From a virus (taxonomy: Duplodnaviria > Heunggongvirae > Uroviricota > Caudoviricetes): 19,757 nucleotides of DNA. This document shows, one piece after another, positions 9,937 through 13,859 of this stretch. The translations under genes were made by a program, and so were the position numbers. Location of the stretch: the IMG/VR virus record IMGVR_UViG_2734482784_000002, positions 1 through 19,757 of that record; one strand, 5' to 3'. Below the pieces are notes generated by a model. It had not been told where the DNA came from and ran no database searches. It saw only the letters and a program-made list of their open reading frames with translations. Every line of letters begins with the position of its first letter. The first letter of the stretch is position 1.

Positions 9937-10011
<75 letters not shown>

Positions 10012-10014
10012 ATA

Positions 10015-10090
<76 letters not shown>

Positions 10091-10423: not shown

Positions 10424-10966
10424 TCAAGCTATTTTTTGAGCAAATGATTCTCGCATGGGAATATACAGGGCATATTCAGCAACGGCTAACCAATTAGCAA
10501 TTCGCTTTTCGCATGTGCTAAAACACCACTCTGGGTGTGCATCATTTAGCAATTCAGCCATTTTGCGTTTGGTCATCCCCCGCCCCTCATACCGTTGCCG
10601 AAGGACGCTAATCAATCCTGGATGCTCTGCCAGCACCTCACTTATGACCCGATCAATACATAACGCCTCTGCATCAGTACAATGCGCCAGCCAGCTCTTT
10701 TGCTTACCGTTAATCATATCCCGCAAAAAAGCCTCAAGTTCAGACTTGTTCAGGCCTGCTTTTTTCATCCTCCGGAGCGCCTCGTTAATTGCCGTTTTTG
10801 TCAGCTTTTTAGAGCCCAACAACTGGTTGAACATATTCCCCGTCTTACCGCCGCCAATATACGACCAGCGCCCCCACATGCGCAGTTTTCCCTGAATCCA
10901 GACACTTTCCAGCGTGGTGAGACGAAGGTGTTCCCCGCTTTTACCTGTATTTGTTGGGTAAATCAT
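10424..10966 (-). CDS. Late-gene antiterminator Q-like protein
   Basis: 180-aa ORF in the canonical Q position between the nin-region gene and the tRNA/lysis block. Contains a Cys cluster (CTDAEALC...CFSTC) and its start overlaps the upstream stop by 4 nt. Call is by position and general resemblance, not exact recall. Confidence 0.55.
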   Translation of the reverse strand: MIYPTNTGKSGEHLRLTTLESVWIQGKLRMWGRWSYIGGGKTGNMFNQLLGSKKLTKTAINEALRRMKKAGLNKSELEAFLRDMINGKQKSWLAHCTDAEALCIDRVISEVLAEHPGLISVLRQRYEGRGMTKRKMAELLNDAHPEWCFSTCEKRIANWLAVAEYALYIPMRESFAQKIA

Positions 10967-11250
10967 AAATGACCTTTCTTTCTCCAGATTTCTTGTGTGC
11001 GAAAACCCCCTTCAGCATGCATCAGGCGCAATTCTTCTTTGGTGTAATCGCTGGTTTTTACCCGCCCGTCGATTAGATCGTGGCATGAGCTACAGGCTAT
11101 CGCCGCCTGCATATCGTGTGGTTTTGTCGCTGTTCCGCACGTCCCCGCCAGCCTGTAATGCGCCAGCACAGAGGTTTCGGGATTGTGATTGCAGTAGCCA
11201 GGGATTCTGATCTGGCACATCTGGCCTTTAGCCGCTTTACGTAAGTCCAC
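10963..11250 (-). CDS. YbcO-like nin-region protein (DUF1364, putative metal-binding nuclease)
   Basis: DLRKAAKGQMCQIRIPGYCNHNPETSVLAHYRLAGTCGTATKPHDMQAAIACSSCHD... resembles DLP12 YbcO as recalled. The track start at 11283 is TTG; GTG at 11250 gives an N-terminus (M)DLRKAAKG closer to the family. Either start overlaps the Cro-like ORF. Confidence 0.6.
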   Translation of the reverse strand: MDLRKAAKGQMCQIRIPGYCNHNPETSVLAHYRLAGTCGTATKPHDMQAAIACSSCHDLIDGRVKTSDYTKEELRLMHAEGGFRTQEIWRKKGHL

Positions 11251-11422
11251 AATGAGCGCCAAGCCGATTAAGGGTGGAAACAATTTTTCTGCACTCCTCT
11301 AGCCCAGGGGTACGAAAGTTTGCTTCGTAATTTGCTAGTCGGCTTTGTATCCACCCTAACTGAACAGCGAGTTGTCTTTGAGACAGGCCAAGCTGTTTTC
11401 GATATGTTGAAATTTTGTTCAT
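11237..11422 (-). CDS. Cro-like small HTH (XRE-family) regulator
   Basis: 61 aa with a helix-turn-helix (LGLSQRQLAVQLGWIQSRLANYE). ATG at 11422 with GGAGG 7 nt upstream. Divergent from the repressor-like gene across a 96-bp palindrome-rich spacer; occupies the ydaS position of Rac. Confidence 0.6.
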   Translation of the reverse strand: MNKISTYRKQLGLSQRQLAVQLGWIQSRLANYEANFRTPGLEECRKIVSTLNRLGAHCGLT

Positions 11423-11446
11423 TGAAAACCTCCGACGACAATTTTA

Positions 11447-11461
11447 AACACATCCTGTGTT
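11447..11461. promoter_or_regulatory. Operator-like palindrome AACACA-TCC-TGTGTT
   Basis: Perfect 6-3-6 inverted repeat in the divergent intergenic region. It lies between a TTGACC -35-like hexamer (minus strand, complement of 11466..11471) and a TTTAAA -10-like element reading toward the Cro-like gene. Confidence 0.45.
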
Positions 11462-11492
11462 ATGCGGTCAAGCTGTTTTGTGTTTTATGTGA

Positions 11493-11507
11493 ATCACGAT
11501 TCGTGAT
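11493..11507. promoter_or_regulatory. Operator-like palindrome ATCACGA-T-TCGTGAT
   Basis: Perfect 7-1-7 inverted repeat 12 nt upstream of the repressor-like gene ATG. Same core as the sites at 10248 and 12023. Confidence 0.5.
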
Positions 11508-11518
11508 ACAAGGATGCA

Positions 11519-11941
11519 ATGGAAAAAGAAAACGAAAAAATTGCCGCTAGTAGGCTCAATGACAAAATTGCAATGCGTCTTAAAGAGCGCAGGCAGAAGC
11601 TTGGTTTATCGCAAGGAAAACTTGCTGAAATCTGCGGATGGACGCAATCGCGTATAGGTAACTATGAGGCGGGCAGCAGAAATGTTGGAGTGCATGATGC
11701 TGTCGTACTGGGAAAGGCACTGGGCATATCTCCTCCTGAACTCCTGTTTGGAGAAAAAGACTCTTCTGAATTGTGGTTAAATGAATCCCAACGAAAACTT
11801 CTAGAGTTGTTTAACCAGCTACCGGGCTCAGAACAACAACGAATGATTGAGCTATTTGAAGTTCGGCTAAAAGAAATCGACGAGTATGTAGAAAAATATT
11901 TGAGAGGCAGGCTTAAAGATCCCCCCCCACCGGAGCAATGA
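11519..11941 (+). CDS. Immunity repressor-like HTH protein (RacR position), no peptidase domain evident
   Basis: 140 aa with an N-terminal XRE-type HTH (LGLSQGKLAEICGWTQSRIGNYE) and a ~65-aa C-terminal tail with no Ser/Lys autocleavage motif that I can see. AAGGA Shine-Dalgarno; strong terminator follows. Confidence 0.65.
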   Translation: MEKENEKIAASRLNDKIAMRLKERRQKLGLSQGKLAEICGWTQSRIGNYEAGSRNVGVHDAVVLGKALGISPPELLFGEKDSSELWLNESQRKLLELFNQLPGSEQQRMIELFEVRLKEIDEYVEKYLRGRLKDPPPPEQ

Positions 11942-11968
11942 TCTTGCTATCACAGTAATATGCCTATC

Positions 11969-11992
11969 AGCCCGCTATCAGCGGGCTTTTTT
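11969..11992 (+). terminator. Intrinsic terminator after the repressor-like gene
   Basis: Perfect 8-bp stem agcccgct/agcgggct with a 3-nt loop (11969..11987), followed by six T. Confidence 0.7.
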
Positions 11993-12022
11993 GTATCATC
12001 ATCATATGACACCTCACCACAA

Positions 12023-12065
12023 AACACAATTCGTGTTGACACGGAAAATCATTTTGTGTTTAATA
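12023..12065 (+). promoter_or_regulatory. Candidate promoter (-35 TTGACA, 17-bp spacer, -10 TTTAAT) with overlapping operator-like site
   Basis: Near-palindrome AACACAA-T-TCGTGTT at 12023..12037 overlaps TTGACA (12036..12041); TTTAAT at 12059..12064. Lies ~180 nt upstream of the ydaG-like gene. Confidence 0.45.
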
Positions 12066-12240
12066 AACATATCCAAACAACGCCCCACCAGAGAACGGCA
12101 GGACAATACCTCGAGTTATCCAGCCACTGAACAGGGCTAAGTAGCCAGCCTGAGGCATACGAACATGACGGCAGTTGTTGATTGATACAAAGCGCAGTAG
12201 ATAAAACGTTCCGCCACCCAGCGTTAAGGGGAGAGATAAG

Positions 12241-12375
12241 ATGGTGCATTATGAAGTAGTTCAGTATTTGATGGATTGTTGCGGTATCACTTACAGCCAG
12301 GCTGTGCAGGCTTTACGCAACAACGACTGGGATCTCTGGCAGGCAGAAGTCGCTATACGTAGCAACAAGATGTGA
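12241..12375 (+). CDS. ydaG: YdaG-like small protein (44 aa)
   Basis: MVHYEVVQYLMDCCGITYSQAVQALRNNDWDLWQAEVAIRSNKM with a GGGGAGAG Shine-Dalgarno upstream. Recognised from memory as the small Rac protein next to racR. Below the ORF-track cutoff. Confidence 0.55.
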   Translation: MVHYEVVQYLMDCCGITYSQAVQALRNNDWDLWQAEVAIRSNKM

Positions 12376-12385
12376 GATTCGCAAA

Positions 12386-12541
12386 ATGCAAAAAATCGAC
12401 CTCGGCAACAACGAATCCCTGGTGTGCGGCGTGTTCCCCAACCAGGATGGAACGTTCACTGCCATGACGTATACCAAAAGCAAAACATTTAAAACCGAAA
12501 CTGGTGCGCGCCGATGGTTGGAGAAGCACACAGTAAGCTAA
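12386..12541 (+). CDS. ydaF: YdaF-like small protein (51 aa)
   Basis: MQKIDLGNNESLVCGVFPNQDGTFTAMTYTKSKTFKTETGARRWLEKHTVS, 10 nt after the ydaG-like stop. Its stop overlaps the convergent sieB stop. Below the ORF-track cutoff. Confidence 0.55.
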   Translation: MQKIDLGNNESLVCGVFPNQDGTFTAMTYTKSKTFKTETGARRWLEKHTVS

Positions 12542-13026
12542 CGATTAAAACGTCTACTCCTGCTGTTCCAGAATAACTTCATAAAATGGGAGTATTTTTC
12601 GGTGACGAGATAATAAGAACAGTTTGCGCTATCACTCTGATGTTGAATGATGCCCTTCCGTTCTAATTTTTTCATAACCGGGTTACGGCAAGGAGAAGTG
12701 ATAATAAGATTTCCTGTTTTAAGGAAATCTTTAAATACAGCGATTTCTTTCTCAGATAAACGAAGCAATACTCGTTGCTCTGGTAGTAATGAATAATGCT
12801 TTTGAATATGTGCTCGCAATCTTGAGAAGGAAATGGCGACCACGAAAGAAAAGGCAAAAACGATAATCTGAAAGAGCCAAGGTATTTCAGTATAAGCATT
12901 GAATGCGACAGTAAACTCTTTCGGTATCAGCCAGAGAGTGAGACCAAAAATGATAATCGTATACATAAGTCTTTCGAGTGGCTCGTTAGCAAAAAGTTTC
13001 AACAATGGAGTAAATACATCCAACAT
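12538..13026 (-). CDS. sieB: Superinfection exclusion protein B
   Basis: 162 aa from the ATG at 13026: MLDVFTPLLKLFANEPLERLMYTIIIFGLTLWLIPKEF..., a membrane protein recognised as Rac SieB. The track ORF is extended 41 codons upstream. Confidence 0.8.
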   Translation of the reverse strand: MLDVFTPLLKLFANEPLERLMYTIIIFGLTLWLIPKEFTVAFNAYTEIPWLFQIIVFAFSFVVAISFSRLRAHIQKHYSLLPEQRVLLRLSEKEIAVFKDFLKTGNLIITSPCRNPVMKKLERKGIIQHQSDSANCSYYLVTEKYSHFMKLFWNSRSRRFNR

Positions 13027-13467
13027 ATCAATAACTCTCAACTGTAAGGGTATTGAAATGTTAACACAAGCTCTCGCTGTAGGGGTATAGCCGAGACCAC
13101 CGAAGCCCGGAGGTGGTGAAATAAAACCGGGCACAACACGAAGGCGCATTTCCGATATCCATAAAGAGTCGGTCTTGTCTGTTAAATTTAAATGGTGGGA
13201 GTGCGCCTCCGGTTGTAAATAACGACATTGCTGTGTGTAGTCCTGGCGGCATCAGTTTTTTTCTTGAAGTTCGGCTGATGTCCGCCCTTTTTAAAGTGAA
13301 TTTTGTGATGCGGTGAATGCGGCTAAGCGCACGTGGCACAGTTAAAAGTCATGTTAGTCCTTATTGGTTTGGGTGGGAAAGCCGACTGTAATTGTTAACT
13401 GGTTGCAGTCACCTGGAAGCACCAGGCACCGCATCAACAAAGTTCATTTGTAAAAATGGAGATAATT

Positions 13468-13689
13468 ATGATTGCACATCACTGCGGAACTGATGAAATA
13501 CCACGTCAGTGTGTGACTCCTGGTGATTATGTTCTTCATAACGGCCGGACATATATTGCCTCGGCAAACAATATTAAAAAGCGAAAACTTTATATTCGTA
13601 ACCTGACTACAAAAACATGCATTTCTGACTGCATGATTAAAGTCTTCCTCGGTCGTGATGGTTTACCTGTAAAGGCGGAGTCATGGTGA
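13468..13689 (+). CDS. kilR: KilR, FtsZ-targeting cell-division inhibitor
   Basis: 73 aa [72 protein letters not shown] recognised as Rac KilR. GGAG 6 nt upstream of the ATG at 13468. Confidence 0.85.
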
Positions 13690-13859
13690 TGACTAAGAAA
13701 ATAAAATGTGCTTACCACCTTTGCGATAAAGAAGTTGAAGAAAGCAAAAGCATTACAAGACCACTTCATTTCATGCGTGGAGTTATCCCAACAACGGAAA
13801 TGAAAAAATATTGTAGTGAAATCTGTGCCGAAAAAGACCAGATGGCACACGAACTTTAA
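13689..13859 (+). CDS. ydaE: YdaE-like small Cys4 zinc-ribbon protein (56 aa)
   Basis: [56 protein letters not shown] with Cys at 7, 12, 43 and 47. The ATG overlaps the kilR stop; an in-frame ATG two codons upstream (13683) is an alternative start. Confidence 0.55.
   Translation: MTKKIKCAYHLCDKEVEESKSITRPLHFMRGVIPTTEMKKYCSEICAEKDQMAHEL

Follow-up and report, generated by a model that had tools for sequence, protein, structure and literature searches.

A widespread, probably structured leader RNA ahead of ydaG and ydaF in a Rac-like Escherichia coli prophage

Two tiny genes, ydaG and ydaF, lie behind a long leader and converge on the superinfection-exclusion gene sieB in a prophage of Escherichia coli, which raises the question of what the leader is for and whether the small proteins work together with SieB. 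The locus (12,023 to 13,026) is part of a stretch of 19,757 nucleotides (nt), IMG/VR record IMGVR_UViG_2734482784_000002, termed the window here, which represents a Rac-like lambdoid prophage and for which EcPNK006 was the best full-length match across 11400-13700 (97.9% identity). We found that the leader is, on comparative sequence evidence, a conserved structured RNA and not a spacer, a point that an earlier sequence-only reading of this DNA had missed. As a whole, the locus appears best explained as a PL-type early transcription unit headed by a leader RNA that acts in cis, an explanation to which we assign a probability of roughly 45%.

Structure of the leader RNA

The leader RNA and its parts were located as follows:

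12072-12183, plus strand: conserved structured leader RNA (module 1), 112 nt; 103 bits with covariance model R1 (E=1e-29)
12075-12081 with 12174-12180, plus strand: outer helix P1
12082-12086 with 12133-12137, plus strand: outer helix of the arm
12089-12091 with 12127-12129, plus strand: middle helix of the arm
12092-12096, plus strand: A-rich bulge
12097-12103 with 12119-12125, plus strand: inner helix of the arm
12104-12118, plus strand: invariant 15-nt loop CAAUAC-NNN-GAGUUA
12138-12173, plus strand: invariant 3′ domain, with the mini-hairpin GCC[AGCCUGA]GGC at 12144-12156

The architecture was common across lineages and comprised P1, a three-helix arm with a 2x2 internal loop and an A-rich 4-nt bulge on its 5′ side, the 15-nt loop, and a 3′ domain with the consensus YAAGUAGCCAGCCYGAGGC-N4-GAACAUGAMGGC, which contains the 3-bp mini-hairpin. 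Upstream of P1, 5-8 nt were single-stranded, and about 40 nt of the leader RNA were both invariant and unpaired. The helices, by comparison, were wholly different in sequence between lineages and yet complementary, the middle helix reading CCAC/GUGG, CGCAU/AUGCG, GGCAAU/AUUGCC, CAAACUG/CAGUUUG, or UCAUCAAGGCAG/CUGUCGUGAUGA.

The covariation was then quantified in several ways. In an alignment of 18 lineages made with MAFFT only, with no fitting to the structure, compensatory changes were present in 22 of 24 pairs. The covariation score was 0.456; shuffles gave 0.20, with 0 of 500 reaching the observed value, and slid partners gave at most 0.19. When 57 distinct sequences were aligned to R1, all 24 pairs were compensatory and 78% of the cells were paired; the score was 0.479, that of shuffles 0.153, and that of slid partners no more than 0.089. 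An alignment-free test of the arm gave -14.8 kcal/mol for strands of the same lineage versus -10.8 kcal/mol for strands combined across lineages (p=7e-5); P1 was not significant in this crude test, and its support came from the aligned counts instead. Given these comparisons, we have little doubt that the leader RNA is a real structure under selection.

Neither RNAalifold, which returned no useful structure from an alignment dominated by one lineage, nor the minimum free energy of the whole leader, which was no better than that of shuffles (z=+1.1), was informative, and the structure was therefore drawn from the comparison of lineages. Pseudoknots between the loop and the 3′ domain (UAC/GUA, AUAC/GUAU) were left out, their variation being uncompensated as judged by eye. 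Protein coding of the element was rejected, since no frame on either strand was open in all 56 sequences tested. An upstream open reading frame (ORF) within it, with a Shine-Dalgarno-like GAGG and an AUG at 12165, was likewise rejected because Klebsiella, Citrobacter, Aeromonas, and some Arsenophonus copies have AUU or AUA in place of the AUG. A search of Rfam 15 with 12072-12240 retrieved no family even at E<=5. Finally, an ORF of 66 aa (12049-12249) and a terminator-like hairpin (12105-12081) on the minus strand proved to be the complement of the leader arm, and this ORF was not conserved in other lineages.

Promoter and operon context

Upstream of the leader RNA, the window carries the following features:

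11237-11422, minus strand: cro-like helix-turn-helix (HTH) gene
11519-11941, plus strand: cI/RacR-like HTH repressor gene
11969-11995, plus strand: intrinsic terminator closing the repressor gene (terminator scan: 8-bp stem with 6 GC pairs, then TTTTTTG)
12024-12036, no strand assigned: operator-like palindrome ACACAATTCGTGT, a putative binding site abutting the -35 hexamer
12036-12064, plus strand: PL-type early-left promoter (-35 TTGACA at 12036-12041, 17-bp spacer, -10 TTTAAT at 12059-12064)

Because the terminator at 11969-11995 ends the repressor gene, ydaG and ydaF require a promoter of their own. The sequence-only reading had placed them behind a strong-looking promoter and a leader of about 180 nt; the promoter was borne out, while the leader measured about 170 nt, from a transcription start at about 12071 that was placed by homology with the conserved 'AUCAAC/AUCC' starts of related leaders. 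The -10 hexamer agrees with the consensus at five of six positions and has no A at position 2, which is why a consensus scan missed the promoter. At the equivalent place, the K-12 homologue has TTGACA-17-TATAGT, and promoter-like hexamers were present upstream of most related copies examined. Additionally, the palindrome ACAC-N5-GTGT occurs twice in the window, at the 12024 site and at 11448 in the repressor/cro intergenic region, versus 0.22 occurrences expected, a pairing that fits control by the repressor.

Homology of most other E. coli prophages to the window begins only at 12063-12088, which places a mosaic joint of the immunity region at the start site. A joint with other immunity regions at exactly this point, the pairing of the element's 5′ and 3′ ends through P1, and the simple 5′ hairpin that the Qin prophage has at the equivalent place could all be accommodated if the element were a 5′ stabilizer or insulator of the mRNA that counters 5′-end-dependent decay and buffers the transcript from variable immunity-region promoters. 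We regard this as improbable, given that simple hairpins suffice for such a role, that some 40 invariant loop and junction nt and a 100-nt architecture would be superfluous to it, and that 5-8 nt are left unpaired before P1.

After the repressor gene, the gene order is ydaG, ydaF, sieB (minus strand), kilR, ydaE, racC, and recE, with the RalA small RNA (sRNA) farther along; the K-12 Rac prophage has the identical order in opposite orientation. Beyond ydaF, the same strand runs antisense to sieB, across a DicF-like intrinsic terminator, and on to kilR, ydaE, racC, and recE. Lowered RacR raises ydaF and ydaG about 40-fold, and kilR, ydaE, and racC rise too (PMC6765115), while CRISPR interference against racR jointly derepresses ydaG, kilR, ydaE, racC, recE, recT, ralR, xisR, and intR (bioRxiv 10.64898/2026.09.06.749655). 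By its operon anatomy, the region is very probably a PL-type unit of a Rac-like lambdoid prophage, transcribed leftward and immediate-early. In Rac-type prophages, kil, recET, xis, and int are controlled by this operon, at the head of which the leader RNA lies. Normally, kil is kept silent by Rho-dependent termination, and this silencing of the Rac operon is what makes Rho essential in K-12 (PMC4150792).

Two further RNA features lie on the path of this transcript:

12190-12236, plus strand: second leader module, GCGCAGUAG..ACGUUCCGCC followed by a hairpin in which CCC (12217-19) and GGG (12228-30) flank AGCGUUAA
13232-13292, plus strand: DicF-like RNA between sieB and kilR, ending in an intrinsic terminator (stem 13245-13286, then CUUUUU)

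The 3′ strand of the hairpin in module 2 is the core of the ydaG Shine-Dalgarno sequence. The module was conserved ahead of differing first genes and its stem covaried (CCCC/GGGG, CCGC/GCGG, GCCG/CGGC, GCC/GGC). It probably represents a translational operator. It also occurs in the leader of the K-12 Qin dicB operon (L183, 2455-2500). Like the operon of the window, that operon (ydfA-ydfB-ydfC-dicF-dicB) is early-left and under the control of a repressor, and its DUF1391 gene (ydfA) is followed by a DicF RNA with its terminator and then by a division inhibitor. It differs in having neither the 112-nt element nor ydaG nor sieB; kinship of YdaG to YdfB was rejected, the two giving no alignment. 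The DicF-like RNA of the window scored 39.1 bits for 13232-13287 with Rfam DicF (RF00039; E=1.4e-6), under the gathering score of 48, and its fold had -21.5 kcal/mol (z=-2.4). Downstream of it, the 5′ untranslated region (UTR) of kilR (13289-13475, plus strand) resembled STnc100, its 34 bits falling short of the gathering score of 47. In K-12, the counterpart of this UTR is annotated as the sRNA KilS. No other part of the region was conserved as widely in E. coli, the segment having about 80% identity in thousands of genomes.

Distribution and possible roles of the leader RNA

A core of about 75 nt was 80-85% identical in lambdoid phages with differing downstream genes (Evi, vB_EcoS-640R1) and was also found in T7-like Klebsiella and Citrobacter phages, where it lies behind an early sigma-70 promoter. 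Pattern scans recovered the element in at least 120 viral contigs and, among bacteria represented by one genome per species, at 49 loci in Escherichia, Shigella, Serratia, Pectobacterium, Symbiopectobacterium, Winslowiella, Superficieibacter, Arsenophonus, and Phlomobacter; two further matches in metagenome-assembled genomes are probably contamination. Most E. coli genomes have it: 3750 of 5426 complete genomes, 3357 of them at a coverage of 80% or more, and a single genome can have as many as seven copies. No annotated feature was present at the element among the RefSeq matches listed, and, apart from T7 A1 templates, a full-text literature search for sequence words of the motif turned up nothing but chance matches in papers on other subjects. 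Thus, the leader coordinates hold a widespread structured RNA that matches no catalogued RNA family and is apparently undescribed so far.

In most lineages, no more than about 10 nt separate the start of the element from a sigma-70 -10 hexamer. It was present as one copy each in the window, in phage Evi (PL side), and in the Klebsiella T7-like phage (behind the early host-polymerase promoter), and it was in the early non-coding region of Autographiviridae of Aeromonas and Serratia. Since the host polymerase reads only the early region of T7-like phages, what these placements share is that the element lies at the 5′ end of an early transcript of the host polymerase. In prophages of Arsenophonus, Phlomobacter, and Symbiopectobacterium, a canonical boxA (CGCTCTTTAAC) directly follows the element, and in the Arsenophonus copies, the boxA is followed by a boxB-like hairpin (CGCUGAAAAAGCG) and then by an N-like protein with an arginine-rich motif. 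These neighbors place the element in antitermination leaders.

Several observations on individual lineages can be added. At five loci of Arsenophonus and Phlomobacter (L128, L137, L158, L161, L171), the leader RNA occurs twice on one strand, the copies being 1.9-2.7 kb apart; for the pairs examined (L128, L137, L158), every copy had its own boxA and an arginine-rich small protein, and in L128, a cI-like gene was situated between the copies. At the Pectobacterium loci L148 and L010/L175, an ORF that comes first or early after the leader encodes a basic peptide of 40-50 aa (..KARAQNSSKKWDAAN..), which resembles the arginine-rich, tryptophan-containing N-terminus of lambda N. The K-12 Term-seq supplement contained no 3′ end within the ydaG leader and is uninformative here, the promoter being repressed.

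For the window, we propose that upon loss of the repressor, the leader RNA would fold on the nascent transcript and act in cis on the host transcription machinery, that is, RNA polymerase or Rho/Nus factors. The early transcript could then escape premature termination in long untranslated stretches and reach kilR-recET, and it would also supply antisense RNA against sieB in the manner of the P22 sas RNA. To arrive at kilR, the plus-strand transcript has about 690 nt of antisense sieB and the DicF-like terminator to cross, and it is because this terminator precedes kilR that read-through would be needed. A specific role in cis, be it anti-pausing, anti-termination, or anti-Rho, is in our judgment the single likeliest function, and we put it forward tentatively. 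A broader proposition seems somewhat more doubtful, namely that the leader RNA constitutes a new class of phage RNA, structurally unrelated to put and common to lambdoid prophages in about two-thirds of E. coli genomes and to T7-like phages, with a degenerate remnant in the T7 A1 leader. With no phage protein involved, such an RNA would reprogram early transcription by binding RNA polymerase, Rho, or a Nus factor, all of them conserved parts of the host machinery. Should the leader RNA indeed modify host transcription, there would be two unrelated ways to antitermination without a protein, that of HK022 put and this one, which temperate and virulent phages share; if its role is another, it is still a widespread structured RNA with about 40 invariant nt and a partner to find.

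A number of results weigh against a cis-acting antitermination leader in a PL-type unit. The -10 hexamer departs from the consensus at its conserved A, and the plus strand across antisense sieB was not C-rich in base composition and gave no signal of a Rho loading site. Coexistence with N/nut in Arsenophonus means that the element is no simple substitute for N, and it occurs on the PL side only, while put is behind both PL and PR. It is also facultative, being absent from the K-12 Qin dicB operon, in which the DicF terminator and module 2 are present. Lambda does not have the element, the 33-nt stretch before its boxA scoring a non-significant 4 bits, and the T7 A1 leader (L177, 525-597) retains only a degenerate 3′ domain, with GAC[..]GUC for GCC[..]GGC and a short hairpin in place of the arm, matching the model at 8 bits, which is likewise not significant; we took the T7 and lambda matches as hints only. 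Finally, the minus strand of the element folds about 6 kcal/mol more stably than the plus strand, and counts of G-U versus A-C cells outside Arsenophonus (21 versus 26) did not discriminate between the strands.

These last two results, together with the terminator-like call at 12105-12081, are what one might expect were the minus strand functional, as a terminator or 3′ element of the sieB transcript, with A-C cells at least as common as G-U cells. This is most improbable. The orientation of the element behind promoters is constant in loci that have no sieB, and it is the same in T7-like phages, in which all genes are unidirectional; moreover, the U-tract is not conserved in K-12, and the minus strand is simply the G/U-rich one. 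As the G-U and A-C counts do not discriminate, our assignment of the element to the plus strand rests on promoter adjacency and the T7-like context.

Action in trans was also considered. The leader RNA might be cut from the mRNA and serve as an early takeover or decoy RNA that binds or titrates a host factor or defense component, in which case the roughly 40 invariant unpaired nt would suggest a partner conserved from Aeromonas phages to E. coli prophages. The element is a facultative, moron-like module and the very first RNA made by both phage types, and RNase III releases the lambda N and T7 early leaders. We nevertheless consider this unlikely: no such stable RNA has been reported, neither a terminator nor an evident processing site follows the element in the window, and action in trans would not demand a position at the 5′ end of host-polymerase transcripts.

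Among known systems, the cis-acting leader RNA that we favor is most readily compared with HK022 putL/putR, a structured RNA of about 70-110 nt with two domains just downstream of the lambdoid early promoter PL (PMC9378689). The two are alike in size, in their two domains, and in place, each being a transcribed leader right after an early lambdoid promoter. They differ in that put lies behind PL and PR, while the leader RNA is present in one copy on the PL side, and in that the leader RNA coexists with N/nut in some hosts and also occurs in T7-like phages. The put RNAs are processive antiterminators that need no phage protein: they bind the zinc-binding domain of the beta-prime subunit of RNA polymerase and suppress both pausing and termination. 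Homology to put was rejected, as R1 found nothing in the HK022 PL leader (L007) at E<=1 and no similarity was apparent by eye. Another cis-acting leader RNA, RARE of Salmonella mgtCBR, is proposed to stop Rho from terminating a long leader and has a chromosomal context; a loose likeness can be seen in the C-rich 5′ half of the leader RNA, which has no sequence relationship to RARE that we know of and a phage context.

The lambda PL leader, with nutL boxA/boxB and then N, shares its operon position and the convergent stop-to-stop arrangement with sieB with the window. Homology to nut was nonetheless rejected, there being no boxA (CGCTCTTTAAC-like) within 400 nt of the element in the window and no boxB. 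A further idea is that YdaF, YdaG, or both are a functional counterpart of N, that is, small nucleic-acid-binding factors that would act on the leader modules and alter transcription or translation. The fold matches of the two proteins were weak and non-specific; they had no N-family match, were modeled as folded proteins, and showed no arginine-rich motif by eye, YdaG being acidic, and unrelated proteins stand behind the same leader in other lineages. We therefore give this idea a low probability.

ydaG, ydaF, and sieB, and other features of the window

The genes that follow the leader are:

12241-12375, plus strand: ydaG, 44 aa
12386-12541, plus strand: ydaF, 51 aa, DUF1391
12538-13026, minus strand: sieB, 162-aa form, convergent with ydaF and crossed in antisense by the PL transcript

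The sequence-only reading had called the two tiny ORFs (44 and 51 aa) at these positions, and RefSeq has both of them, under the names ydaG and ydaF, for K-12 as well as for the closest relative. Across related loci, the distinct single-base codon variants of ydaF were 49 synonymous and 21 non-synonymous, with 50 of the 70 at third positions, and those of ydaG were 9 synonymous and 6 non-synonymous, while random mutation would be expected to yield 18-21% synonymous variants. By this codon evidence, both are genuine small protein genes under purifying selection. YdaF matched Pfam PF07151 (DUF1391) at 98.3 bits against a gathering score of 27.3 (E=1.9e-28), had 292 homologue clusters in Escherichia, Shigella, and Salmonella, and was modeled by AlphaFold (pLDDT 86.7) as four short strands with a C-terminal helix. 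YdaG is an orphan, with 18 homologue clusters in Escherichia only and 9 matches among 1.84 billion representatives; it matched Pfam UBA_4 at 22.7 bits, barely over the cutoff of 21.8, and its AF2 model (pLDDT 72.7) was a three-helix bundle. The PHROG families of both proteins, PHROG 14709 in the case of YdaG, are labeled 'unknown function', and PDB sequence searches were set aside as giving chance matches only. The earlier remark that their function is not established agrees with the literature, in which the ydaFG operon is listed among genes without a determined function (PMC11014345). In passing, YdaF-like ORFs in phage records ON470614, ON470595, ON470580, and others are labeled 'head-DNA stabilization protein D', a mis-annotation that goes back to one of the PDB chance matches, in which 19 residues align with the head decoration protein of phage 21.

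SieB itself was identified by Pfam PF14163 (E=3e-31) and PHROG 6399 (E=5e-70). Its ORF is open up to 13149 (12538-13149, minus strand), giving 203 codons with several in-frame starts, and the RefSeq forms have 142 or 162 aa; the several starts are reminiscent of the two-product SieB/Esc arrangement of P22. The overlapping convergent stop that had been described at 12538-12541 is exact, a 4-nt overlap of the ydaF TAA (12539-12541) and the sieB CTA (12538-12540, on the opposite strand), and it is identical in K-12 and EcPNK006. Lambda has the same layout, with N (35037-35438, minus strand) running toward sieB (34482-35036, plus strand) until the two meet stop to stop, which puts ydaG-ydaF in the 'N position' of a standard early-left operon.

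The sequence-only reading had gone further, offering the small proteins as candidates for exclusion or anti-defense roles whose expression is coupled to sieB through the overlap, and had suggested co-occurrence as a check. Of the 106 related loci that had at least 3 kb downstream, about 68 contained a YdaF-like gene, 17 YdaG, and 16 SieB, so that most YdaF genes had no adjacent sieB. Only ydaG tracked sieB (16 of 17 loci), and since all such loci are of one Rac-type lineage, these co-occurrences are not independent. Neither YdaG nor YdaF matched a PADLOC defense model at E<=0.01, and SieB was likewise without a PADLOC match. There is a precedent in P22, where the antisense RNA sas switches translation within sieB (PMC12197685) and sieB lies opposite early-left transcription as it does in the window, where the overlap begins at the 3′ ends. 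Through the convergent layout, the ydaG-ydaF transcript runs antisense to sieB, and given the precedent, antisense coupling is plausible, as a property of the early-left transcript and not of the ydaG and ydaF ORFs; a special coupling was not upheld, as the convergent layout is generic for lambdoid phages. Exclusion or anti-defense proteins functionally tied to sieB are accordingly a very unlikely account of the pair. We infer instead that YdaG and YdaF are early accessory proteins in the position held by N in lambda, with no sign of joint work with SieB. As known and annotated genes in a generic lambdoid layout, with a proposed link to sieB that is weak, they shift the experimental focus from the small proteins to the leader.

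Elsewhere in the window, the ydaT/U/V replication module of the closest relative (L001) is missing, and the prophage therefore appears to be deleted and defective. The RalA antitoxin sRNA was identified at 18023-18201 (minus strand, 225 bits), the cro-like ORF overlaps a ybcO-like nuclease ORF (10963-11422, minus strand), and two tRNA genes are located at 9940-10090 (minus strand).

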